From contig CH464492.1 of NCBI GenBank assembly GCA_000002445.1, forward strand, positions 160,001 through 224,000: a DNA stretch of 64,000 bases. Direction: 5' to 3'. A program made the translations under genes and the position numbers. This DNA comes from Trypanosoma brucei. Taxonomy: Eukaryota. This document shows, piece after piece, positions 3,001 through 61,200 of the stretch. The notes beneath the pieces are model-generated. The model was given only the letters and a program-made list of their open reading frames with translations, made no database searches and had not been told where the DNA came from. How positions within the stretch are numbered: the stretch's first letter is position 1; each line of letters starts with the position of its first letter.

Positions 3001-5944
3001 CTCGCTACCTGCTTACTGGTGTTTTCTTTACAAAAATGCACATTCATTTTTGTGTTAGCTGCAGCGCATATGTGTGTGTGTCTGTGTGTGGTGGCACGGT
3101 TAAATTATTGGGTCACGTCAGGACCATATTGCATCATGACAAATATCATGCTACCATTTAAAAAAAACAAGTAGTAGTAGTAAGAAGAAAGCTATTGTTT
3201 TCTCACTGCTGTCGCGTACATCATGCGTGATACAACAGTTTCCATTTATTCTATGGTAGTTTTAAATATAGCAAGGGATACTCGGAATTGTTGTGCTGCT
3301 TTTATCGTCCCAGCCATACTGTCTGCTTTTCATGGTTAAACTAAAACTCCAATGAAATCGCATTGTTGTTCCATCTTTTGCAAATCACCAATGATAGTAT
3401 GCCCCACATTCCTCCATGCTCGTAACTATTTTGTTTCCACGACATTTAACCACTTCATGCCTCACATTGATACGGATGTTGCATATCCATGTTTGAGTCC
3501 TCAATATTTCAGGGGTCACTTGCTGCAGTTTCATGACATCGGCGTCTTCTAAAAAGAGCTTTGTGATGGTGTGTAAAACTCCAGGGGTCTCTTTATTAAC
3601 TGATGGGGAGTCGATTCAAATTCATTAATTCCCCATTTTCGCTAAGGTATCGAAACCCCAGCCGAATATCTTCAGGTAATTTCACTTGGGAGAGGAACGA
3701 CTTTAGATCAAACATTGCTACAGACTCGCCATGGAGAGTATTTAAATACTGGGAAAAGTGACCCAATGGGAGATATGCCTCATAATCATCCCTGCTCTTT
3801 TTAGCCTTTGGTCATGCAATGGATCAACGCCTTCTTCCAATTCCGTGTTTCCTCCATCACAAAGAATGTCGCACAACCCATCCTGCCATATGTCTCTCTG
3901 AAACTGTGCCAATGATATGCGATTGCTTTATTATTTGGGCATCCTTTTCTACAATGCGCAGTTCACACTCCTTCTTTGATACTTTCTCTCTTTCTTTCTC
4001 TCTGCATCACCTGTGCTATTCATGATGCTCCAAACCTCATCAAATCGTTTACTCGCTGCTTGCATCATCCTCTGTCATATGCACGAAAAGGAAATCATTC
4101 CCACATTCATTTCCTATTGGAGAGGTGAAGTCTTTTTTTTTCCTCATCCCGTGATGTCACCTTTGTTTTCCCTTGTGAGTGTCAAGGAATGCTGTGCCAT
4201 CGATAATTTGGGAAGGTATTCCCCGTTATAAGTCCCGGCTTCCCTCACACTGAGTCCGAACATTCCTTCCAATTGTATCTTACATCAAAGACATTAAAAG
4301 AATCGTCTTGCTTACGGAAGCTGTCACACATCTGAGATACCGCACTGTGCTTCGTTGGAGTTCCATTGTGTAGATGTACTTTCCCAATTGTATTAATAAT
4401 ATGTTGTCAATGTCGTGCTCCATTGCGACTGCTGCCGCTGCGCGTGTCAGCAGTGCTCTTCTCTTTATGGAATGTTCTATCATTACGTATGGTCGTTTCA
4501 GTATGATTTCATTTTCACCCTTGTGGTAATGGCTATGAACTTCTTCCCCTTTCCTCCCGAGGTTCCTCCCTATGACTTTTCTCACACTGGCAGTGTCATT
4601 TTTCCAGTTTATAATTACGCATCGTGTGACTCTGTGGGTATCGCTTTTGAATTTCTTTGGAAGGTTCCCCCCAAAATCCACTATTGAGGCTTGCTTGCCG
4701 TGTGAGTGTGGTATAACATTTTGCTCTTTTTTTGGGAGCTGTGTAATTTCTTTTTGCCATCGCATGGCTGGGTGCAATTCATTCCATTGATATTGCAACT
4801 GGATACCACTCTGGACGGAACTTCCTGCAAGATATTATCGAATCCCCATTACAACATGTGTTGTGTTTGTTTGATGGGCTCACCTGCTACCGTATTGTAA
4901 AGACAGACCCCAAAACAACATCCGCGTCGGTGTGTCCAATAGAGATGATGGAAGAGCTCTCTTGTACTGAAATGGCAATGCTCTTTGCGAGTCGTACACT
5001 TACAACAACAAATAGAAGTGCAGTTACATCCTATGCTGGCATGCGGTAACGATTTTCTGCCAATGCATAAAAACTCCACAAGATGAATTCCCTATCGCTC
5101 ACATGTTTTAGTCCTCAGCCACATTCGCCTTGCTATTCTGTGGGCTCCTGAAACCAATGCCATGATGTACGGATGGCTTTGTGTGGGAACTGGAATAATA
5201 ATAATAATAATAACTCCTTTCACCAATGAGTTTATTCTCGGTTGTAAAAGTGCTCTTGGTGTCACTCCATTTTCCTTTTTGAGTCTCCAACTTTTGAGGG
5301 GCTGTTGTATTTTTTTTAAAGAGTGACGCACCGTTTTATTCCCCACCCCTTTTAGGTGAATTTCTCCTGCACAGTTTATACTTTCCCATTGTAGAATGTT
5401 TCTCAAGGTGTTTCTTTTGTGAAGCTTTGGTTATTCTATAATTAAAGGTCACTGTACCCACTGCTTTCGAGACCTGTTGTTGCATTTATTCCCCTTTAAT
5501 TGCTGCAAATTTATTCATTTGACAATTTGTACTGCAATACTTCACTTGAACACATGTGTAGCATCGTGTCTCGCTACTTTGTAAAAATTCAAAAAGAACA
5601 CATCAGCTGATATTCTTCTGTTCTTACTTCGTACATTCACATCTCTTCCCGCCAGTTCGGAAACTCCCACTCAAACTCACCACTCTCTGAAGATTTGTAG
5701 TTTCCGTTAGTGGTGGGCGTACTGAAGTGGGAATGTTTGGCACTTCAAAACTAATTTTTTTTAAACTTACAGCTTCCTTCTTGCAGAGAGCTAAAGGGTA
5801 AGAGTAAAAGAATAGCTGAGTATTATGAGAAAACATAAGCCCAAAACATTCTCAATGCAAGCTTTCAAAACTGACTACTGTTATGAAATATTTTATTAAT
5901 TTGGTTTATTTACTTTCTTTAAGGATATTAAGAGTTGAGTTATG

Positions 5945-6020
5945 ATGGCGATAGTAATAATGATAATAAGGTTAGGTTTGTGTTGTGAGTGTGTATATAC
6001 TAATATTATAATGAGACTTT
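5945..6020 (+). repeat. 70-bp repeat, single copy, upstream of VSG cassette 1
   Basis: gataataag...gtgttgtgagtgtgtatatactaatattataatgagac matches the trypanosome 70-bp repeat consensus ((TAA)n then GTGTTGTGAGTGTGTATATACGAATATTATAATAAGAG). Confidence 0.8.
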
Positions 6021-6917
6021 TGCGGACCGAAGTAAACTCCAAAATAAAGGAACTTAAAATAATTGAAAGTGATCAACGAGAAAAAGTAGGTTTGCGAGAA
6101 AGGGTTGAAAAAGGAAAGAAGACGAAATGTGTTTAGATTCAAGCAACAATATGACGATGTTCATCATTATACACAAAGAGATGATGGAGGGGTTAATGCG
6201 GAAGAGACAATGTACAAGCCTAGTGGAGTCACAGCGTTACTCACTTCACCACCATCGCAGAAAGTTGTGATATATAAGTATTATCAAGAAAAAATTGGAT
6301 TTCACATCTCACTATATAATGGATATATTCTTTTCAGAGATGACTGCAGCAGCAGCAGCAGTGGTTCTAAACGCTACGCTAATGGAAGTCTTATGATCAA
6401 AACCGTGTAATTGGGATAAATAACACAGGAAACTTGTAAAATTCCTAGCATATCTGAACTAATCAATGCAAAAAGATACTTCCATTAACATAACTATACA
6501 TAGCGGTGAAATGTGAAGAATGCAATAAAGGAGTAGAATTACTCTAGCGTGCTCTGAACAAGCTGTTGCTAAAGGTGACTTATAAAACAAAAGACTGTAG
6601 ATGCCTGCTCAAAGATAAGCCGCACACACTAAGCAAACGTGTAGCAGCAGATACATCATAACAATATCAATACATTGCTTATGTATATAAAACTGTTTCT
6701 TAACTAAACAGCTTAGTAGTACATCTGGCTTATCTTTCTTGAGTTTTCCACATTTTTTAAAATAAAAGCCTAAAATTATAAAGGTATTTTAGGTAATGAA
6801 TTTTCGTATATTTAGAAATTTACTACTACCGTCGTTATTACATTGTGTATTTAAGCACAATATCTATAGAGAACGATGATATAATAAATTTAAAAATTTA
6901 TTATATCATAAGGAATA

Positions 6918-7783
6918 TTGTTAAGAAAACCTAAAGTATTTGTGGCTGCAGTTCAAACTCGTGCAACTCAAGGATGGTGTAGATTCATATTGAGTGCCAA
7001 ACTAAGTAACATTGAAATTACTACAATTACGATGGGAATTTTGTATATCCATGTTAAAAAGTCTAAATGGGTTATGAAATTTTTAGAGAAACAGAATGCA
7101 AGTGATGAGGATATTGTAATTCATTTGGATGGATCTGATGTTATAATTACTGATGGTAAGAAGTATTACAATACGTTGGAATATTTTGTGCAGAATACTG
7201 CAAAAAATGAAGAGAAGTTTAGTGGAGAAGATATAGTAAAAGAGAAGCACATTTCCCCTATTATATTCATGACAACATCAGAGTGTTATGCTCCTCAGTT
7301 GGATTTGCTTATGAATTCAGATCACAGGAGCATGTGCAGAGATGTCTTTGGTTTTTTAATGTTGGTTACCAAAAAGAGGAGGATAAGAAGCTACCGCATT
7401 TACTGAAATCACCTCACAGTAGAAAACCTTATCTTAGTGGTGGAGGTTTGATAGCAAGAGTTCGGGTGTTTAAGAAATTTGAGTATGCATTTGGAGAATT
7501 ACTAAAGGGAAGTGAGAAGTGGTGGTCGGATCAAAGTATCTATACACCATTGCTAATATGGATTGTTACACAGGAAGAAACTGTTGGACAGATATTTGTT
7601 CTGAGGAGAGGAATAATTGGATTGGATTATGAGGAAGGATTTTTTACTATTCAGAATAGTGGAGAAGTCGAAAGCGCATCATTCATCCATTTTCCTGGGC
7701 AGCCTATTGCGTGGGAGGAGAAAACGAAATTGCTTGCGAGAAAACTTTACTTGGCACAAGGAGTTCGAGAAAAGGCAGTTTAG
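6918..7783 (+). pseudogene. GT8-like (glycogenin/LgtC-type) nucleotide-sugar glycosyltransferase fragment, frameshifted
   Basis: Two overlapping ORFs (6918-7406 and 7283-7783) in different frames. Motif order and spacing resemble GT8: HLDGSDVIITD (DxD region), FFNVGYQ (FNSGv-like), WWSDQSIYTPLL (DQD.LN-like) and IHFPGQPIAW (HFxGxxKPW-like). No N-terminal part and no clean ATG. Confidence 0.45.
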
Positions 7784-8083
7784 CCCGGAAGATTTTTTGA
7801 AAAATTCAAACTTACTCTATACGTTGAGGTCAAAGGAAGTTTGAACACTGGGAAATTTGTAGAGATACGTCTACAGAAGGTGATTTGTTTAGAGAAGAAA
7901 GGCGGTAAGTCATAGGCTATGTTCAAACAGTTGTACCCTCAAAGCAGTTGTTGAAGTATCGGTGTAAGATTAGTAAAATAAATATTAAACGACTCTGTTT
8001 CTTAAAGGTGGCCTGCATCGAAAAAGGATTTCCAAAAAAAAAACTCAAACAGCTATAAGTAGCACTTTTCTACAAAGAGGCGC

Positions 8084-9703
8084 ATGCCAATGTACCGAAC
8101 ACACGCCAAGATAAGCATGCCAGTGCTTTGCATTTTTTCCGTCGTGCTGCAAGACATAGCCACAGCGGATGTTGAACCCGGCGACAACGGCGGCTACTAC
8201 GCTAGTACGTGTGCAATCCTCAACATGCTGCTCGGAGCGACCGCACAAACTGATAACCAAGGCGAGGTACAAAAGATAGCCACGGAGATTGGGGCAATAA
8301 ATCTTTCTGTGGCGGATGAAGCTTTCAGAAAACTTATAAAACACGATGCTGACTGGGACGGCGCACCAATTAAAGCAGAACACGAATCTAAAGAATACAC
8401 ACCGGACTGGAAAGCCAAGTACCCGTTCTGGCGGGCAGCGAAGCAAAAACTGCACTCAAGTCCGGATCAGTTCAAACAATGGCAGGAAGCCAAGCTAAGT
8501 ACATCAGCGAAACATCAGCTGCGACAACTCGCCGAACAAGCCTACGCAGACTATTCCGAACCGACGCTGCAAGAATTTCCGAGCCTCAAAAGGGAATTGG
8601 AGGAAAGAATCAACGAAGCTGTTTACGGCACAAAGACAAACGACGACGATACACAAACACCGGACGGCAGCAGCAGGGCAACAGTGTGTGGGGCAGCAGA
8701 CGGAAGCGCAGGATCCGGCGCAGGGTCATCTCTCAAACACGACTTACTTTGCCTCTGCGGCGCGGTATCAGGCAACCTTGACAAGGTATGCTGCGCAGAC
8801 TGCGGTGCCCAAGCCACACACTCGTGGGGAGCAGGCACCACAGTACCAACAGCATGGAAGCCAATAAAAGCCAACTGCCCCACACACGCAGGGACATCCG
8901 TATTAACCACAGCAAACCTCCAACAGGCTGTCTCAGCGTTCTACACAACGATCAGCAAAAAGCAGTCGACTACCCACAAAAAGCAGTACATCCTAGGCTT
9001 ACTTTCAGGCGACGGCACAAGCGGATGCGCCGGAACCAGCGCCATCAACGGCGGCGCGTGCGTAATTTACAAACGCCAGACGACACAACGCAAGACAAGC
9101 GTATCAATACCATGGGCAGACAAGGCCCTAACAGCCGCAGAAATCGCCGACAAACTGATAAAAAGGCAGGGCACCATTCAGCGACTGGAGGATAGGCTAC
9201 GGCTTCTAAATGTCTCCGTCACGGCCTTAGTACACAATATCGCCGAACAGGCGTCAGCACAAGCAGCAGCAAGCGACACAAGCGACAATACCTCACCAGG
9301 ACAGCAAACAAAATCGGAATCAGAGTGTAATGCAGCAAAAGACAACCAAAAAGACTGTGATACGTTAAAGGACAAGGGGTGCGTTTTTGACTCTGAAGGA
9401 GAGAAGGGGAAAAAGTGCACATTGAGTGAACAAGCCAAAAAAGCAGCAGAAAACGCAGCTGCGGCAGGAACAGGAGATGGAACAGCAGGAACAACAGATA
9501 AATGTTCTGCTGCACAGACCCTTGACGATTACGCCAAAATACATGGAACAATTCCTCAAGGAAAGAAAGCTTTTTGTAGGTGAAGAAGTGAGAAATATAA
9601 CAAGAATGAAAAGGACGAAGGTAAATTCCGTGATTCCAGTTTCTTTGTAAACAAGAAATTTGTTACAACGGCTGCTGCTCTTGTAAATTTGGTATCATTT
9701 TAA
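8084..9703 (+). pseudogene. VSG, full-length frame with one in-frame TGA (9584-9586) before the C-terminal tail
   Basis: ATG at 8084; signal peptide MPVLCIFSVVL; A-type-looking N-domain; C-terminus CAFCR*RSEKYNKNEKDEGKFRDSSFFVNKKFVTTAAALVNLVSF stays in the same frame after the TGA; 70-bp repeat upstream; 3'UTR ttaacacttttg element ~9795. Confidence 0.85.
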
Positions 9704-9959
9704 GTATCTTTTCTTAATTTTACGAGACTTATGAATTTATAGAAATTGCTATTTTGAAAGAATTCTCTAAATTTACTAAAATTTAATATAATTTAACACT
9801 TTTGTAAAAACATTGAGAAATGTGCAAATATGAAATTTTAGTAAGACGTGTATGATGATGGAAAATGGGAGTAAAAGTGGTATGGTGATAGGATATAAAA
9901 AGTGAATAATATTCTCAGTATTTTTTGTTTATTTCCACTTTTTATGCATATTATCTCTG

Positions 9960-17572: not shown

Positions 17573-20500
17573 ATTTTTTTAAATTTTTCTTCGTGCCTTC
17601 GTGAGAGTTTCCCCCCACTGGCGCGGCCATCAGCCATAACCGTAGAGCCCTGAGATGCTATTGGTCTGGCGACTGTGGCAGAGTCTCCCTTTTTTATTCA
17701 TCCTAACACACTCTATAATTTTTTGTTGTAGCTCCGCAGTTGAACGGAATACAGCAGATGGGGCGAGAAGCCCCCCACCCTGGACTCTCCAAAAGATGTC
17801 ATTTAGCAATCCTTTTGTTTTGATTTTTGTTATTCGTTTATTATTCTCTCCCCCTCTTTCTGTTTCTGTTGCTTGTTGACTGCATACCCCCTCTGTCTCT
17901 GAGGGTGTCTGGACTATTCTTGCGTCCGGTGCTTTTCCTGCTAGCTCCACACTCGGCAATAAGGGGGGAAGTTGTAGAAGGGAGAGTGGGTTGTATGACT
18001 GTTACATTAGGTGAGGACTTCACCTGCGGCCGGCTCCGTTCAACCGCAATGAGAAACTGCGCCAGCCTTTTAGAAAAACATATATCCTGCACACACACAC
18101 CTTCTACCGCAAACCTGACACGTAACTCCTTCAAACCGGGACAGCTCATCAAGTGCAGCGACGTTTCTTCGCAGTCGCCGCGTTGGCTTGTAACAGCGCG
18201 CTCTACCTTCATACCGTGCATCTTCTTTTGATGTAGGGTGAGGCCAGTTTTGCTAGCACACTGCCTTCCGCATGTCGGGTACACCAACATGGATGCATTT
18301 GTATGCGGGGAATCAGTGGCACACAATTTTGTGCTTTTGCTGCATTTAAGCTCCACTTCCTCACCTTTGTGGAAAGCCTTACAGTGTCAGATGAGGGAGT
18401 CCCTGCAACTGAGCATTTTTTGGCACACACCACACTGCACCTCCCCTTTCCCCGGGACGTCAAGGTTTCCCTCACTGGAACGCTTACGAGGGAATTGCAC
18501 CACCACCACGGTACCGTCCTCCGTCACTATGCTCTTATGTTTGAATTTCTTGTGTAGTGACAGGGAAGAGCATGTACCGAATCTCGCCTCGCACAGGTCA
18601 CATTGAAACGGCAGCTTCCGTGTATCCTGAGAGGCTGGCGCTGCTGGGACGCTACCATCTCCTTGCAATGAGTCTTCGTTTTCTCGCCCCCATTTCACGC
18701 GGCAACTACCACAACCTATGCCATGTATTGTTCTAAGGTGGTGTAATAGTCGGCCTAGCACTGCGAATATGGAGGCACAGATGGTACAATGAAGAACCTG
18801 CGGTCTCATCGGGACTCGTGTGCTCGATGGTAGAGGAACGATCGCCACCACTGGAGGGGGCTCCGGGGGGATGTCCACTGCAGGTGTTGCATCGCCGTAT
18901 TTGATCCTCCGGAGGGCATCAGCTCGCACAAAGCCATGTTTGTTTACCATGTGCGTTACAGCACTCGAGCGGCATTGGTATGTGGCATCACATTCCGTAC
19001 ATTTGGTCAATTCGGAGGTTCTCTGAAGAGTGCGTGTCGCAACAGGTTGTTTGGGTTTGTATTGTTGGTCCTATCGCTGCATGCTGCGGGTTACACCATC
19101 GGCACTGTGGAGGCACACTCGGGTCGATCTTTCGCAACATCCATCCATAGTATCTTGAAGACCTAACCCGAAAGCGTGCCAGTGCTGTTTCTTCTTCCCT
19201 CGTCAGTTCTTCTTTATGTTTTGTTGGAAAGTGGTTGCCCGTGATACCAAACCTATGAGTGTTCTCATGGACTTCTTCCGACCTAAGCACTCGCTTCGCA
19301 TAAGCAATGATGTCGGGGATCCATGTGTCTCGCAACTGTGGTAAATCTGCGGACTTTTTGGCCATTTCATCACAAACCTCATTCCGTTTCACGCCACAAT
19401 GGCCAAACACAAATTGCAGTCGGATGCGTATCTTCCTTCTCTGAACTTGAAGCAGAAGCCTCCATAGTCTCTCAGAATTGGGTCCGTTACGGCTAGGGGC
19501 CTGTCTGCAGTGCTGTTAACATTGACAGCGAGTCAGAGAAGATGGACAACCTGCTCGGTGTGGTTCTGTATGCCGGAAGCCATTTCAGCAGCCGTTGCAG
19601 TCCTATCTCTAATGCTACGCATTCCGCTCTGTAACTGCATGAGAGTTCCCCTGCTCCAGTTTTGGGTGCGCAAATCAGCGTGTTGTTTCTATAGAGCAGG
19701 GCAGCTGCTCCGGACTTCTCACCGAGGGACACGGATCCATCAGTCCACAATTCGTAGTGCTCTCGTCGCGGTGGCTCCTTCCCCCTCCGTGCAAAATGCC
19801 GTTCAATCCACTTTTCGGAAGCCTCCCTTTTGACATTGTTAGAGTCATCAGCGCACACAGGCTTTATCTGCGTGTGAAATAGCGGTCGGCAGCTGTGGCG
19901 GAGCGTCGATGTCTCTAGTGGGTTTTCGCGTGGCTCAATGCGGAGGTGAAGGTAGGACCGCATGATGCGGGAATGTGTGGCTCTGACTGGGTGTTTGCTG
20001 TGATATGCTTCCTCAGCACTGCGCCGCAAACATCCGCCTCGTGACTCACACATCAGCATGAATTTCATGCTGCGCACAAGAGTGGTCGTCTTGAGTGGCA
20101 GGAGGTTTGCTTCCAGCAGACAGTCCTCTTTGCTCGTCCCATGTGGTATGCCAGCTATGATGCGACTGACCTTGTGTTGCGCTGCTGCAAGGAGGTCGCG
20201 ACTTCGTTCCGAAGCGTCCCAGTACCATACCTCAATGCCATACATGGTGTGTGCCTGTACGAGTGCTAGATAAAAAGCTCTCAGTACTTGTCGTCTTGGC
20301 CCCCATGTAGAAGCTGAGATGGCTGCTATCTGCAGTAGTAGGAAGTCCATCTTGCGTCTCGTTTCTGCCGCATGTGTTGCCATCCCTTGCAGACACTGGA
20401 ATGTTACTCCTAGAAGCTTCGGTGTCCTGTCAGCTCCTATTCTTTCGCCGTCCATTGTAATGTAAGGGGGTGGCGCTCTATACACCCGAAGAGTGTGCAC

Positions 20501-22818
20501 TTCGTTTTCGCTACGTTGACAGACATGAAGTACTCTTTTGACCACTGTAACACCACGTTTAGGCCGCATTACAGCGTGTGGTTGATGACATCCCTCTCTG
20601 TGTGCCTCGCAAGTAGCGTCAGGTCATCTGCAAAGAATCCGTGCTGCAGTAACGGCACTTCTGCAAGGCGCTGGCTCAACGAGTTCATGACAATAATGAA
20701 CATGATTGGGCCAAGGACAGTTCCTTGTGGCACTCCTCGCTCAAATGTTCTGCTGCTGGAAAGCTTCTCCTTGAATCTCACTCTGCCAGTTCGGTTACTC
20801 AGAAATGATACACACCACTTCACAATGTGGGGTGATACCTTCATTCTGTGCATTTCCCTCGCAATTTTGTCGTGGTCTACTGTATCGAATGCCTTCTCTT
20901 AGTCGACGAATACAGCACCTGTACGATATTGGTGCGTGGGACGGCAGAGGGCAGCGCGGACGTGCAGGAGGTGTTCGAGCGTTGAGCATCCGGGGCGAAA
21001 GCCTGATTGCTGCGGCGTCAGCTGGGACTCAACAGTGTCTCTAAGTCTCGCGGCAATTATTCGCTCCATGACTTTGCAGAGACAGCTCGTGAGCGTCACT
21101 GGCCTGTAAGAATCGAGGTCCTCCGCCTTTTTTCCGGCCTTCAGGATGGGGATGATAACACCAGTCTTCCATGCAGACGGCACGACTCCCGTTCGTAGGC
21201 TCTCATTGAATAGCCTCAGAACAACATTCAGCGCTGTTCTACCGAGATGTTGCAGTGCCTTGTTGTATAAGCAATCAGGTCCGGCTGCGGATCCACTCGG
21301 TAGCAGTTTGATCGATCTCCGTAGTTCAGCCATCGTGATGGGACTGAACTCACTCGCTATCGTCTTTATGTGTGCCGGTGGGTGTGAGTCGGGGTGCCTT
21401 CTTGCGCAAGACGAGTACAGTTTAATGAACCTCTCAGCTTGACGGTAGTCCGTGATGGCCGCGTTATCAACAAGCACAGCCGGTGTGGTTAGTGGTCGTG
21501 GCGCATATACCTTCTTGACAATGTGCCAACTGCAGCGGTCTGACACCGCAAGTCTGGAGCATAGCGTGCTCCATCTCTTCTTTGTGGTACGGTCCAGAAT
21601 CTGCTTACGCGTGGCTACCAACTTTTCTCTTATGTGGAAAGGTCCTCATCCAGCGATCTCTTCATCGAGTTTTGCGAGCTCAGGTGTCCAATGTGGTGGC
21701 GTTGCTCTGCAGCCACGGGGGACGGAGACCTTCGTCGCAATGCGGATGGCGGAGCTCAATTTCTGTTCCATGGTGTTGACGTTCTTCTCTCTAACAATTT
21801 TCCTGCAGAGCTCGTCAACCTTGAGGCGGAAATTCCTCCAGTCAGCTTTTAGCCATGCGTACATGGGCTTTCGAAGCTGCGGGCAACTCAGTGCATCTGT
21901 GCCGTCTCCAACGATAACGTCGAAAAATATGTGATGGTGATCGCTATCGGGAGAATACAGCGATGTCCACGTACACTATTTAATTCCTTGACAGTGTCAC
22001 ATCAGGGGTGGACTCCCCGTGGTGGCGTGCGTACCTGGTGCACTCACCAGTGTTGCAGACCAGAAACTGGTTGTCAATGCACCACTGTGTGAGGGTTTCA
22101 CCCTTGGTATTTGGTGGGCTCGCGCGATCCCATGCCAGCGCGTGTGCGTTAGCGTCTGCACCGATGAGCTTGGCACCGTCAGTCGTCAGAAGCGTATCTA
22201 GGTCAGTTTCCGTGAAGGTGTGTTTTGGTGGGATGTATGCCGACGTGACAGTCAGCGCCGTTCCACGTGCAAGGTGAATTGTTCCATGCACTTGTTCAAT
22301 GCGACCAACAACGGTCATACCTGTCTCGACTGGTAGGTCCTCCCTCACTAGTATTGATACACCACCTCCTTTGCAGTTACGAGCTATTCCGTGATGTTGG
22401 TAGCCAGCAACGCTAAAGCAAGCCGCCTCTCCAGGCGTCATCCTTGTCTCGCTCAACAGACAAAAGGCGATCCGCTCATCAACAAGGGTTTTGTGGAGTG
22501 CTAATCTCTTTCCTTGAGATAGCCCGGCGGAGTTCCACTGCATCCCGCGCAACGACGGGCCGGGATTCTCTTCCACATCACCGGACAGCAGCATCTTAGT
22601 GCGGATGATACTGCTGATGACACGCTGGCACGTGCCCAGGGACCGACAAATGAAGAACGGTGTCCCAGCAAGACGCTGCTGATCCCTGTGCTGTATGATG
22701 CCGTTGCCGGAGCACAGCATTGTTCCCCATGAAAGGAACGCTGCTGGCTCTTCGCTTCCCCCGATGATACGGGGTACTGGACCCTGGCACCACGTTGAGG
22801 TGGCCGGCATTAGCAGGG
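17573..22818 (-). mobile_element. ingi non-LTR retrotransposon, near full length (~5.25 kb), degenerate with multiple frameshifts
   Basis: The 5' end on the - strand reads ccctgctaatgccggccacctcaacgtggtgccagggtccagtaccccgtatcatcggggg (Pr77-like hallmark shared with L1Tc/ingi/RIME). ORF fragments on - are in ingi order: 2A-like + APE endonuclease (21980-22840), RT (20899-21621; 19493-20853 with FADD motif), RNase H-like (18988-19410), C2H2 zinc fingers (18387-19010; 17841-18356). A poly(A) tail shows as a T-run on + at ~17573-17590. Confidence 0.85.
19493..21621 (-). pseudogene. ingi reverse transcriptase region, split over 3 ORFs
   Basis: VVPSAWKTGVIIPILKAGKK...YRPVTLTSCLCKVMERII, GVPQGTVLGPIMFIIVMN...FFADDLTLL and MYGIEVWYW motifs typical of non-LTR RT; ORFs 20899-21621, 20569-20853 and 19493-20569 are in different frames. 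Confidence 0.75.
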
Positions 22819-22840
22819 AATATAATGCATGGCAAATCAA
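21980..22840 (-). pseudogene. ingi polyprotein N-terminal fragment: 2A-like peptide (DVEENPGP) followed by AP-endonuclease domain
   Basis: LLSGDVEENPGP at ~22555-22578 (- strand), then MQWNSAGLSQGKRLALHKTLV...ILVREDLP...SAYIPP (APE-like); out of frame with the downstream RT. Confidence 0.75.
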
Positions 22841-41694: not shown

Positions 41695-41790
41695 TATAAT
41701 AGTAATAGTAATGGCAACAATAAAAATAATATGGGAGTGTTGTGAGTGTGTATATACGAATATTTTAGTATAAGTAGTAGGGAACAGCGC
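41695..41790 (+). repeat. 70-bp repeat
   Basis: taatagtaatagtaatggcaacaataaaaataatatgggagtgttgtgagtgtgtatatacgaatattttagtataag. Confidence 0.8.
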
Positions 41791-42739
41791 ATTGTCGACC
41801 AATATAGAAGCCATGTAAGCTAGTGGAAAGGGTGCAACAAGGGTAAGTGAGTGAGTGAAGCAGTGACTGACTGAGAGGAAATGAGCCATATTGTCAAATG
41901 ACATTAAAAAAGACAGAAAGAGAAGATGGAATATGCATGGATTCAAGCATTAAAGTGACTAGAGGCATTATCATGCACGCAAAGATTATTGAGGGAGACT
42001 ATGTGGAAAAGAAAAGGTCTACTGTACAAGAAAATTGGCGTTTCTACGTTATCAGCGGTGATAGAAGCGGAGATAGAAAACTGGAAAACACAGCACGTAA
42101 CAAAAGTAAATGATAGAAAAGAAACAGATTATATAGTCTAATTAACCCAAAAATGGAAAGATGCCACTTCAATGATGGACGTATAAACCACAGGGGAAGT
42201 AGTTGTTGAGTCTGCGCTGTTAGGATTGCGTATTGAAAACGGACGGTTGTGCTATTTATCACAGGCAGATGGTAAGAGCTTTAGTATATATAAAATAAAC
42301 AGTGCAACTAGCTATCCCTACTCCCATATCAACATATGAAGGTCAAATATGAAGAATGCAAAGAACATCAGAATACACGAGTAAGTAGAAGTGACTGTGG
42401 TTGAAGGTGATTTCTACTAAAACCCCTCTATGACTAATCAAATAAAAGATTTAGACACTATGCACACCCACTCTTCAGCAACTACATTATTAAAATATAA
42501 AGGAAATACTCATACATGCAAGCACTATGGTGCGACAAATTATTTATGTTGTTAATATTTTCAAGTCCATCATATAATTTTATCAAATTTAAAGACAGGC
42601 TAGGTCATGAAACTTTGCATATTGAGAACTTTAATATTACCATTGATGTTACATTTATTGTACTTCACCTAAATATCTTTACAAGATGATATTGTAATAA
42701 AAAACAAATATGATAGAGAATAACACTAAGAAACAAAGA

Positions 42740-43700
42740 GTGCCTGTAGTTTTCGCTCAAACTCATCCAACTCAAGGATGGTGTAGACTCATATTGAGTG
42801 CCAAAACTGACCCATGTTGAAATTATTACAATTGTGATCGGAGGTTTTGTATAGTCATGTTAAAATACCTATATGGGTTATGGAATATTTATAGAGAAAC
42901 AGAATGCAAGTGATGAGGATATTGTAATATAAGTTGATGGGTTTGACGTTATTGTTTCTGACGTAAAAAAAAATATGAAAATGCTGTGGAATATTTTGTG
43001 CAGAATACTGCAAAAAATGAAGAGAAGTTTAGTGGAGAAGATATAGTAAAAGAGAAGCACATTCCCCCTATTATATTCGTGACAACATCAGAGCGTTATT
43101 TTCCTCAGTTGGATTTGCTTATGAATTCAGATCACAGGAGCATGTGCAGAGATGTCTTTGGTTTTTTAATGTTGGTTACCAAAAAGAGGAGGATAAGAAG
43201 CTACCGCATTTACTGAAATCACCTCACAGTAGAAAACCTTATCTTAGTGGTGGAGGTTTGATAGCAAGAGTTTTGGCGTTTAAGAAATTTGAATATCATT
43301 TGAACATTTATTAAAAGGCAGTAGGGAATGATGATCCAATAAGAGCATTTTAAAGCGTTTACTAATTTGGACTGCCATTCAGGAAGAGGCTGTTGGACAG
43401 AAATTTGTTTGGAAGGGGGGAATGATTGGATTAGATTATGAAAAGAGATTTTTTTCTGAACCAAATAATGGTAAGATTGAAAGGACAGTATTTATTTATT
43501 TTTGTTTTTCAGCCACTTGTATGGGAAGAAGAATCAAAATTGATTTTTAGAAGTCTTACCCTGTATAAAGAAATTGAAGTAATGTGGTTTAGTACGAAAG
43601 AGTTGTGTGAAGTTGAAATTTATACAATAATTGGCACAAAATGGATTTCAAATATGGAGATATTTGCGCTCGAAATTTTATATGGTGGAGTTATTTAAAG
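42740..43700 (+). pseudogene. GT8-like glycosyltransferase fragment, second and more degenerate copy of 6918-7783
   Basis: 42990-43270 is near-identical at nucleotide level to 7180-7460 (EYFVQNTAKNEEKFSGEDIVKEKHIPPIIFVTTSERYFPQLDLLMNSDHRSMCRDVFGFLMLVTKKRRIRSYRIY); the flanks are similar but more diverged. Confidence 0.5.
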
Positions 43701-43887
43701 TTAATAAATTGTAGAAGAGCTATGAAGACGGATACTCAGAGCAAGCACAGGTGAGAGCAAGAAATGTTACATTTTTTGTCTTTGTTGTTGTCTGTAAAAC
43801 AGTAGCTGTGAAGCCCTATAATATAGCTGTAAAAAGCAAATTGTTTCTCCATTAATAGTGTCCGTTGGACATCAAATTTAAGCGCAA

Positions 43888-45474
43888 ATGATTCGACCGA
43901 TCCAAGCCGTTTACGTAGCATCGATAGTGATTGCAGCTGCAGTCTGTCAAAGATCCGCGGAAGCGACTACTGAACCAGGCCCAAACGGCGGTGCATTTTC
44001 ATTACTCTGCACTATCATCAACATGTTAAATGCAGGAACACAGCCGCCTGACACCATCCAAGCAATCGAGCATCTCGCAGCTGAGATCGGTGCCTTATAC
44101 CTTTCTCAAGCGCCGGCGAAATTCTGGGATTCAATAGAGGAGGATAAAACGTGGCAAACCCTAGCAGACACCGAAAAGCCCTCAGCTGACGACGACAAGG
44201 CGACATGGGAAAAGTACTATAACTTCTGGGCAGCCTCAAAGAAGCAGATCGCAAAGAAAAAAGAACAATACGAAACTTGGGGCAAAAAGAATCTTGCAGG
44301 TGACTACCTCTCGGAACTAAAAAAATACGCGGAAATGGCATACAACGCGTATACAAACGCAGAGTTGACAAAGTACGCCACGCTCGAGACCACGAGAGAA
44401 ACGTAAGCCGACTTGGCCTTGTACGGGGCCGCAGGCAAAGACAAGGAAAATACCGACGATGCAGCAGGAACGCGAGAGAACAGCTGTGGCCTCGGAGACG
44501 CAGGGACGAGCAACCAGGCCGGAAAAACGATAAGACGGGACATGGCTTGCCTCTGTGCGAAGGGGACAGGGACAGAAGTCAACAACGTTTGCTGCCGCTA
44601 CTGCGACTACAGCGGCGAGTCGACATGGCGCACAGCCCAGCATGCCAAAGCCAAATTCGAGCACCTCATTACGAAATGCCCAGCTTATGCGCCTACACTG
44701 GAGGTAACTAGCTCTAACCTAAACAACATCTTAGCCAAATTGCATGTCACCATAGGCGGCATTCAAGGAACAACAGCGAAGAAGCCCTATGTCCTCGGGC
44801 ATTTAGACGGGACCGGGAACAACGGTTGCGACGGCAAATCTGAAGGAAACGGCGGTGTATGCGTAATCTACAAAGAGACAGCTGGCGGCACAACCAAACA
44901 TGCCGACATTGCGTGGGAGCAGCCAGCAAAACTAGCGTAGGCCGCGGCCGACAGCATGGAGGCCAACAAGCAGAGATTACTCGAGATGAAGGCAGAACTG
45001 ACACTACTAAATGTCACCGCCGGAACAATCAGCCTCTGGGGCAGTCGGCAGCTCAGTGTTACTAGCACAAACAAAGTTGAGCCGGCCGCCCAATGCAATA
45101 ATCACAAAACAAACAAGACCTGCACAGCAGCTAAGTGCAAATTGGAAGAAAAAGATGGAAAGGGTGAGTGCAAACCTAAAGATGGAGCAGAGCAGAAAAA
45201 AGCAGCAGGAACAGGAGGAGATGGAGCTTCAGGAACAGCAGCTTCAACTGAGTGTGCAAAACACGGGACCAAAACTGAGTGCGATGCTGACAAAAAAGAT
45301 GACAAGCAAAATTGTGCATTTAGGAAGGGAAAAGATAATGAAGATGACAAGGTTACAGAAAAGCGCCGCTCTTCTAGTTTTCTTATCAAGAAGAAAATTG
45401 CTATGATTGCAGCTGCTTTTTGTGAGTGTGGTATTACTTTAACGATTTTTGCTCATTATTATGAAATATTTTAA
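43888..45474 (+). pseudogene. VSG with two in-frame stops (TAA 44404-44406, TAG 44938-44940); same subfamily as the VSG at 8084
   Basis: ATG 43888; ORFs 43888-44406, 44413-44940 and 44956-45474 are all in one frame; N-terminus EPGPNGGAFSLLCTIINML matches EPGDNGGYYASTCAILNML of VSG 8084; C-terminus CAFRKGKDNEDDKVTEKRRSSSFLIKKKIAMIAAAF plus an extended tail. Confidence 0.85.
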
Positions 45475-57890: not shown

Positions 57891-59353
57891 ATTTTAGTAA
57901 GTTTCATCAAATTCATAAAATTGAGAAAAAAGTCTCTGAATGCTACCAAACTCATAAAAGCAGCAGCAATCATAGCAAATTTCTGATTTACAATAGAACT
58001 GGAATCTTTGCACTCTTTTCAATCCCATTTCAAATCCGGAGATTTGCAATCTTTATCTAATTTCCCTTTGCATTTCTCTGTTGTTTTTTTCTGCAGCTCT
58101 CTCTGCTCCTTGGCTTTGCTTCTCTTCCGGATGTGCTTCGCATGTGCCTTCAGCTTCTGTCCCATCCCATTTGCAACCCTTATCTTCACAGTTCTTCTTT
58201 GGTTTGTGTTGCTTGCACTCCTCCTGCTTTTGTGCATTATTGCTGGTGTTTCTACATTCTGCTGCAGGTTTTTCTCCCTTTAAAGCTTGATCTATCAGTG
58301 TTATCTCCAGTTTTTTTAGTTCTGTCGTTATGGTCTCTGAGTCGTCTTCTACAAAGCTCTTAAGCTGCTTGCTTATGGTGTTTAGTTCCTCTGCCGTGAT
58401 GTCATATGTCCCTTCTTGGTCGGCGTCTCCCAAGTCTTTCTTTGGGTTTTTGGTCTCTGGTATGTTCGGCTCGTCGCCAGTTCCTAGTTTGTTTATGGCG
58501 GCAAGTTTGTCTAGGGCCCCGCCACGTAAGTTGTTTAATTTTTCTTGCGGGATATCGTTGTATTCCCTGATCGGGCTCCCCGTCGGTAAGCCGCCGTTTA
58601 TGTTTGCGAAAACAGACGTCGAAGTATCCGACGTATGGATGAACAGCAAGCCGCCCATTGCTGGTATCGGTCCCGCGGCCGCCGCACTGTGCCCGAAGCC
58701 GTCCGTATTGTCGGAGGACAGCAGCTTGCAGCTGTCGTTGGTTGCTCTGTGAGCGGTGGTTGTCCAGTCGGCTGCTTTGGGAATGTTGGCTTCTGCGTTT
58801 TGAGCCGTTTTAATGTCCTTTGTTCCTAGCGTTGTTCTCCAGGCTCCGTCGACGAAGCATTCTTCCAGGTGGTCTGCTGTGGCGAGTGTGTTGCCGTCGT
58901 CTTGTGTCACGCAGAACTGACCGTTTTTGCTGCCTTTTGTGGCGAAAAGCAATTCGCCAAATTCGTCTATTCTGTCTGCAGCTAGAGCCGCTGCACCAGC
59001 TTTTTTGCTTGCTCCTGGCACGTTGTCTTTGAGTTGATTGCTGTCTCTATTTGCCTGCGTGTGTGTGTAATTACAAATTTTTTTTTTGGATGGAGCGGCT
59101 TCGGAGACTTCAGAGTTGCTAGTGTTAACTGGGCTTGCGTCTTGGCAGCCGCTGATATGATGGTCATCGCGTCCGAGACAGCCTGCTCTACGTAATTGGT
59201 AGTGTCTTTTAGGCTATTCGATAACTTGCACACGAGATTGAGGCCCGACACTTTTATGCCCTTTTTGGCTGCATGCGACTCTTTGGGCATAAATAAGCAC
59301 ATTGCCAGGCTTATTGTGAGTCGGAAACCATTGAACATTGTTACTTGAGGCAA
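57878..59353 (-). pseudogene. VSG (- strand) with frameshifts and a read-through tail
   Basis: ORF 58053-59021 (...CKQHKPKKNCEDKGCKWDGTEAEGTCEAHPEE...) plus 58019-58237 (KCKGKLDKDCKSPDLKWD) in another frame; the tail ECKDSSSIVNQKFAMIAAAFMSLVAF reads through the 3'UTR and stops at the TAA inside the 16-mer (57875-57890); N-terminal part is ORF 58982-59353. Confidence 0.75.
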
Positions 59354-61084: not shown

Positions 61085-61200
61085 TATTAGTACATACATA
61101 CTCACAACACTATTCTATACTAATAATAATTATTATTATTAGTATTGTTGTTACTATTCATATTTTAATCATCACTGATATTTATACAATAATAAATAAT
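61085..61200 (-). repeat. 70-bp repeat, minus-strand orientation
   Basis: The reverse complement of 61090-61150 reads ctaataataataattattattagtatagaatagtgttgtgagtatgtatgtactaatat. Confidence 0.75.

Follow-up and report, generated by a model that had tools for sequence, protein, structure and literature searches.

A stretch of 64,000 nucleotides from Trypanosoma brucei (assembly GCA_000002445.1, contig CH464492.1, positions 160,001 to 224,000 of the forward strand; hereafter the window, in whose own coordinates all positions are given) contains a full-length pseudogene, which we call psi-1, of ESAG3, a classic expression-site-associated gene (ESAG). It lies on the + strand at 6796-7908, from an ATG at 6796 to a TAA at 7906-7908, downstream of a 70-bp repeat and upstream of a class-B variant surface glycoprotein (VSG) sequence that begins at 8084. 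The best explanation, which we hold to be very probably correct, is that psi-1 is a non-functional ESAG3 copy in a cassette of a silent array and has presumably been copied passively with its class-B VSG. A first-pass annotation of this DNA had reported a frameshifted fragment between the 70-bp repeat and the VSG at 8084 and had read it as a pseudogene of a GT8-like glycosyltransferase, that is, one resembling glycosyltransferase family 8. The two open reading frames (ORFs), the quoted motifs, and both flanks were all located, and the frameshift, at the codon for K176, is real; the relic, however, is no fragment but a full-length gene with about five frameshifts and a stop. Likewise, the gene is indeed a pseudogene of a metal-dependent, retaining glycosyltransferase of the GT-A fold, but that enzyme is ESAG3 and, with no match to PF01501, not a GT8 protein.

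The two long ORFs of psi-1 overlap on the + strand in differing frames. The first (6918-7406, 162 amino acids) corresponds to ESAG3 residues ~42-176 and carries the DXXD metal-binding motif as HLDGSD, and the second (7283-7783, 166 amino acids) corresponds to residues ~176-316 and carries the glycine loop SGGG, the motif WWSDQ, and IHFPG, which includes H297. Read across both, the motif order is HLDGSDVIITD, FFNVGYQ, WWSDQSIYTPLL, and IHFPGQPIAW. In a protein search the joined translation matched, at E 1.4e-142 with 77% identity and 95% query coverage, a cluster of 368-residue ESAG3 proteins from T. brucei bloodstream expression sites (BESs). A match of this strength is not due to chance. This search was word-indexed and returned that single ESAG3 cluster; the wider family comes from an exhaustive HMMER search, with 46 representatives. 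A frameshift-aware protein-to-DNA alignment with the ESAG3 protein P0001 covers 368 of its 368 residues, with 248 of 370 positions identical, and the core of psi-1, aligned by tblastn in two pieces, is 73% and 78% identical to ESAG3. Reconstructed at full length, psi-1 is 65-68% identical to each of the BES ESAG3 proteins compared (13 of 13), 43-58% identical to short ESAG3-like fragments, and at most 31% identical to full-length GRESAG3-like representatives. Because its nearest relatives are the BES proteins and the GRESAG3 type is far removed, psi-1 is, by its sequence, a member of ESAG3 sensu stricto (Fam53), as a pseudogene. Exact-protein look-ups in public assemblies for sister loci, made with the VSG at 8084, ESAG3 P0001, and both psi-1 ORFs, found none on record.

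The function of the parent gene has been established by genetics, in vitro assays, and cryo-electron microscopy (bioRxiv 10.64898/2026.01.27.701950). ESAG3 is a retaining GT-A uridine diphosphate (UDP)-glucose:VSG alpha-O-glucosyltransferase that is Mn2+-dependent and specific for UDP-glucose, and it is needed in vivo for the O-glycosylation of VSG3. It forms a ring of 18 subunits, its closest fold is that of the LH3/PLOD3 glycosyltransferase domain, and its active site comprises the DXXD residues D110 and D113, G215-G216, W242, E244 and Q245, and H297; the mutants D110N and W242A are inactive (bioRxiv 10.64898/2026.01.27.701950).

Most of these catalytic residues are still legible in psi-1, although it would make no enzyme, because no reading frame joins the signal peptide, the half with the DXXD motif, and the half with the histidine. 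The lesions include about five frameshifts, with extra bases near 6875, 6927, 7743, and 7801 and the loss of one base at ~7326, which leaves a two-nucleotide codon at residue 176 (K176; 7324-7328, + strand). An in-frame stop stands at 7825, and both ends are decayed, namely the first 41 codons, which correspond to the signal peptide and an N-glycosylated stretch, and the last ~50 codons. With these frameshifts, the stop, and the decayed N-terminus, psi-1 has no intact frame that includes a signal peptide. In ESAG3 numbering, checked on P0001, the residues D110, D113, G215, G216, W242, Q245, and H297 can all be read; E244 is replaced by D, which restores the DQ found as consensus both in LH3 and across the wider family, and the interface residue H54 is replaced by R. 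Within the decayed N-terminal region there is also an almost perfect palindrome, AT-rich and 34 nt long (6876-6909, TGATATAATAAATTTAAAAATTTATTATATCA), which is absent from the second pseudogene described below and may be a chance product of AT-rich decay.

The copy of the 70-bp repeat that forms the upstream edge of the VSG cassette (5938-6016, + strand) is similar to other copies by blastn and has its core, GTGTTGTGAGTGTGTATATAC, at 5980-6000. Exact repeat cores occur 11 times in the window, with 0 expected. The repeat is followed by ~0.8 kb, psi-1, ~175 bp, and the class-B VSG, which occupies 8084-9706 on the + strand with an ORF of 499 amino acids (PF13206 VSG_B, E 6.8e-66) and is hereafter called VSG-8084. 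Its nearest solved structure is mVSG1954 (E 7e-28). Within it, an in-frame TGA at 9581-9583 is followed, in the same frame, by a hydrophobic tail that resembles a glycosylphosphatidylinositol signal (ending in DSSFFVNKKFVTTAAALVNLVSF and a stop codon). Because this tail continues in frame past the TGA, VSG-8084 is probably a pseudogene as well, disabled by a single nonsense codon that likely arose by a change from TGG to TGA.

A second cassette of the same layout lies further along the + strand. It consists of a 70-bp repeat copy recognized by blastn similarity (41700-41767, core at 41737-41757), ~0.85 kb, a second and more decayed ESAG3 pseudogene, psi-2 (42607-43714, with at least 12 frameshifts or stops by tblastn and frameshift-aware alignment), ~175 bp, and a class-B VSG pseudogene broken into three ORFs (43888-45474; PF13206, E 1.7e-19). 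The latter is the closest relative of VSG-8084 within the window (29.8% identity over 470 amino acids, E 9e-58, tblastn); no ESAG3 relic accompanies the window's three other class-B VSGs. The simplest reading is that a single ancestral cassette, in which a class-B VSG already stood behind a 70-bp repeat and an ESAG3 pseudogene, was duplicated whole. The first-pass annotation had suggested that the fragment is a relic of the context from which the cassette of this VSG originated. Since the second cassette is laid out alike and its VSG is the one most closely related, this idea is reasonable, though ideas of this kind are not new.

By blastn, psi-2 is 79.5% identical in nucleotide sequence to psi-1 at 6790-7735, and the identity is unevenly spread. 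Sliding identity on a MAFFT pairwise alignment reveals a near-identical tract of ~300 bp (7175-7465 against 42985-43275, both on the + strand) in which identity is 93-100% and is perfect over 7318-7440, whereas the flanks are 57-85% identical. This tract is likely a patch left by recent gene conversion. The K176 frameshift, which recurs in psi-2 at ~43136, lies inside the tract and may therefore have spread by conversion instead of descent; we dropped it as proof of a common pseudogene ancestor, since such a tract makes conversion equally possible. Outside the tract, an alignment-independent count distributes the differences between psi-1 and psi-2 over codon positions 1, 2, and 3 as 44:36:61 (p 0.03), and we regard the divergence as decay that was in essence neutral, any past constraint having left a faint trace at most. 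A Nei-Gojobori ratio of nonsynonymous to synonymous rates (dN/dS) of 0.40 for the pair was not relied on, because protein-guided codon choice lowers dN.

We propose that an ESAG3 copy was trapped downstream of a 70-bp repeat beside a class-B VSG, that it died there, and that it would then have been copied passively along with the neighboring VSG. The parent gene encodes a glucosyltransferase that resides in the endoplasmic reticulum and acts on class-B VSGs. Its position 3' of the 70-bp repeat would make psi-1 passive cargo, carried along with the VSG in a duplicative transposition whose upstream boundary would fall in the repeat. Such a dead copy would decay almost neutrally, and from time to time other ESAG3 sequences would patch it by gene conversion. 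Some points weigh against this explanation. The trapping and the passive co-duplication are drawn from two cassettes in one window, the lesions of psi-1 were positioned by protein-guided alignment and not by comparison with intact ESAG3 DNA, and the slight excess of third-position differences is compatible with some divergence having taken place while the copies were functional.

A reading that is compatible with passive copying, but that we consider unlikely, is that the dead gene has been retained as useful DNA, a 1.1-kb homology block that biases VSG use. In this form psi-1 would align its cassette for gene conversion with expression-site ESAG3, including the pseudogenes of BES7 and BES15. 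The ~300-bp tract shared by psi-1 and psi-2 indicates that the relics do take part in gene conversion, recombination breakpoints have been found at ESAG3 loci together with a suggested role in orienting expression sites (Hertz-Fowler et al. 2008, PMC2567434), and according to the literature the choice of donor in VSG switching depends on homology, with some switches recombining between ESAGs. However, nothing in the sequence shows selection for retention. It is decaying, with an identity of 57-85% outside the tract and still worse ends, the other three class-B VSGs manage without an ESAG3 relic, and upstream homology is already supplied by the 70-bp repeats.

A related question is whether the company that these relics keep is meaningful. 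ESAG3 relics downstream of a 70-bp repeat adjoin class-B VSGs in four of four cases, two in the window and one each in BES7 and BES15; these cases are not independent, the two in the window being related, and they prove nothing. The VSGs of the latter two sites, VSG3 (BES7) and VSG11 (BES15), are O-glycosylated class-B VSGs (bioRxiv 10.64898/2026.01.27.701950). We think it somewhat less likely even than retention as a homology block that the linkage between ESAG3 relics and class-B VSGs is not accidental, whether it reflects an ancestral mobile unit of a glucosyltransferase and its substrate VSG or a block of homology that still steers recombination among class-B cassettes. If a preferential linkage were true, it would bear on a question that the preprint on ESAG3 raises, namely why the gene for an O-glucosyltransferase should adjoin VSGs (bioRxiv 10.64898/2026.01.27.701950).

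VSG-8084 itself has a Ser/Thr loop flanked by cysteines, GCAGTSAINGGAC (GC-AGTSAINGGA-CVIY, ~9030-9075, residues ~316-330). It aligns with the loop GC-DGIGGSNGGK-C of the metacyclic VSG1954 (PDB 8B3W), which served as a test peptide for ESAG3 (bioRxiv 10.64898/2026.01.27.701950), and resembles the O-glucosylated loop C-TGSASEGL-C of VSG3. The loop is a candidate ESAG3 acceptor site that adjoins a dead ESAG3 gene. In the VSG pseudogene after psi-2 there is a cysteine-flanked loop in the same place, with one Ser.

It is very improbable that the locus is an intact, expressed ESAG3-like gene whose frame breaks are errors of sequencing or assembly. Most catalytic residues are kept, and ~50 intact relatives of ESAG3 are reported from outside expression sites (bioRxiv 10.64898/2026.01.27.701950), but this reading would have to accommodate about five independent frameshifts plus a stop, badly decayed sequence over the N-terminal 41 and last ~50 codons, and near-neutral codon-position differences from psi-2. 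Furthermore, the K176 deletion is also present in the second copy, 36 kb away, where an error would not arise again.

We give just as little credence to the proposal that psi-1 derives from a GT8-family glycosyltransferase unrelated to the known expression-site genes, since, apart from a GT8-like motif order, the evidence runs against it: psi-1 is 65-78% identical to ESAG3, PF01501 finds no match, and searches of the PDB return no GT8 chain. In Pfam, neither PF01501 (GT8) nor PF03407 (Nucleotid_trans), the alternative named in the first-pass annotation, matched the psi-1 ORFs, the joined protein, or three intact ESAG3 proteins at E<=10, or any of 21 ESAG3 family members at E<=1, and these results rule out membership in both. 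The best Pfam match was to GT_PLOD (PF25342), at 23.7 bits (E 3.2e-5) for the first psi-1 ORF and 16.5-20 bits for intact ESAG3; all of these scores lie below the 27-bit threshold of the model, and the match is limited to its N-terminal third. Searched against the PDB, a profile of 21 family members found the glycosyltransferase domain of LH3 at E 7.4e-5, and GT8 chains were absent from the results of both the sequence and the profile searches.

Structure comparison points the same way. With an AlphaFold2 model of ESAG3 (predicted local distance difference test 82, predicted template modeling score 0.82), Foldseek returned LH3 at 1e-7 to 1e-5 and glycogenin at 1e-2. Structure matches to the model scored 15.7 for mimivirus R699, 15.6 and 15.1 for the LH3/PLOD glycosyltransferase domain of LH3, 12.5 for A64R, 11.4 for XXT1 (GT34), 11.2 for the xylosyltransferase domain of LARGE1 (GT8), 11.0 for UGGT (GT24), 10.1 for GlyE (GT8), 9.9 for LgtC (GT8), and 9.5 for glycogenin (GT8). 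The fold of ESAG3 is not closest to the GT8 structures; the closest fold combined with a superposable active site is found in the LH3/PLOD domain. ESAG3 is outside GT8, and constitutes a kinetoplastid family whose nearest outside relative is an LH3/PLOD-type domain. The label GT8-like is fair for the general architecture and chemistry, that of a retaining, metal-dependent GT-A enzyme, and not for membership. Retaining chemistry with Mn2+ bound by a DxD motif and a C-terminal His is common to several retaining GT-A families and therefore does not discriminate among them.

Three of the four motif assignments of the first-pass annotation coincide with the experimental active site of ESAG3. Its counterpart of the DxD motif, HLDGSD, is the DXXD motif with D110 and D113; the motif likened to DQD.LN is WWSDQS, which covers W242 and E244/Q245 (D-Q in psi-1); and the one likened to HFxG is IHFPG, which holds H297. 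In the GT8 enzyme LgtC, the DxD motif, D188/Q189, and H244 have the roles that this analogy implies. The assignment of FFNVGYQ as the equivalent of the GT8 motif FNSG is probably wrong, since a helix is predicted for this segment (residues 178-195). The strand-and-loop role of FNSG is better suited to YLSGGGLIA, with a predicted strand at 213-220 and with G215-G216 of the published structure.

The surroundings of the two cassettes are those expected for ESAG3. Many VSGs or VSG pseudogenes lie on the + strand of the window, each with a 70-bp repeat before it, and the 11 repeat cores, the VSG_B and A-type VSG ORFs, and an ingi-like retroelement together identify the window, from these predicted features, as a silent subtelomeric VSG array. 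ESAG3, the 70-bp repeats, and the VSG domains also point by themselves to T. brucei sensu lato. Broken ORFs on the - strand at ~18387-22840 match RVT_1 (E 5e-11), Exo_endo_phos_2 (E 1e-11), and a C2H2 finger; by these predicted domains the region is an insertion, within the array, of an ingi-like non-long-terminal-repeat retroelement. An A-type VSG fragment (58053-59021) and a 70-bp core (61090-61110) towards the right end of the window are both on the - strand, and because they lie on the opposite strand they suggest a change in the orientation of the array somewhere at ~50-58 kb. An ORF on the - strand at 63175-63834 matches Galactosyl_T (PF01762) below the threshold of that model (E 7.5e-4; 19.8 bits, with 23 required), and it may be a relic of the other subtelomeric glycosyltransferase family of trypanosomes, dependent on UDP-galactose or UDP-N-acetylglucosamine.

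The essence of these findings is already known on both counts, the association of ESAG3 pseudogenes with VSGs and the glycosyltransferase nature of the product, because pseudogenes in arrays, pseudogenes in BES7 and BES15, and the function of ESAG3 have all been described. According to the literature, ESAG3 is widely represented in subtelomeric VSG arrays by pseudogenes, which make up most of its copies there. For strain Lister 427, BES7 (VSG 427-3) is listed with an ESAG3 pseudogene 3' of its 70-bp repeat, and ESAG3 pseudogenes are listed for BES15 (VSG 427-11) (Hertz-Fowler et al. 2008, PMC2567434). The first-pass annotation knew of no described GT8-type gene associated with VSG cassettes, but the association had been described, as the gene is the known ESAG3. 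A literature search for ESAG3 together with the term co-transposed region gave no match. What our analysis adds is small: the full anatomy of psi-1, its twin cassette, the conversion patch, and the class-B VSG neighbors. By itself psi-1 matters little, since it just adds to the dead ESAG3 copies of VSG arrays. A reading of motifs in raw sequence did, on the other hand, recover a glycosyltransferase identity that was established experimentally only in 2026.

Among known systems, the GT8 enzymes (LgtC, glycogenin, GlyE, and the xylosyltransferase domain of LARGE1) share with ESAG3 the GT-A fold, Mn2+-dependent retaining chemistry, and a similar order of DxD, glycine-containing strand, DQ, and C-terminal His motifs, but they are clearly more distant from it than LH3 and R699. 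LH3/PLOD3 (PDB 6FXR, 6WFV) and mimivirus R699 (9DYT) show weak but real sequence similarity to ESAG3, as the profile match indicates, and the active-site residues of LH3/PLOD3 superpose on those of ESAG3 (bioRxiv 10.64898/2026.01.27.701950). Identity to LH3 and R699 is nevertheless just 13-19%, the acceptor of LH3 is the galactosyl-hydroxylysine of collagen whereas that of ESAG3 is a VSG serine, and ESAG3, unlike LH3/PLOD3 and R699, assembles as an 18-mer. The GRESAG3/ESAG3-like genes of trypanosomatids belong to the same family as psi-1 and conserve the motifs FDGxDT, YLNGGG, WWCDQS, and LHF; they are, however, merely ~27-31% identical to psi-1 and represent an ancestral lineage on core chromosomes. 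Far closer are the BES ESAG3 genes (for example, AAA63784 and CAQ57304; Fam53), which have the same 368 codons, DXXD motif, glycine loop, W242, (E/D)Q, and His. These functional genes precede the repeat block of their expression site, whereas psi-1 is dead and follows a 70-bp repeat in a silent array. The ESAG3 pseudogenes of BES7 and BES15 are located in telomeric expression sites and psi-1 in an array, but they share with psi-1 the order of 70-bp repeat, ESAG3 pseudogene, and VSG, and the VSGs to which they are linked are likewise of class B.
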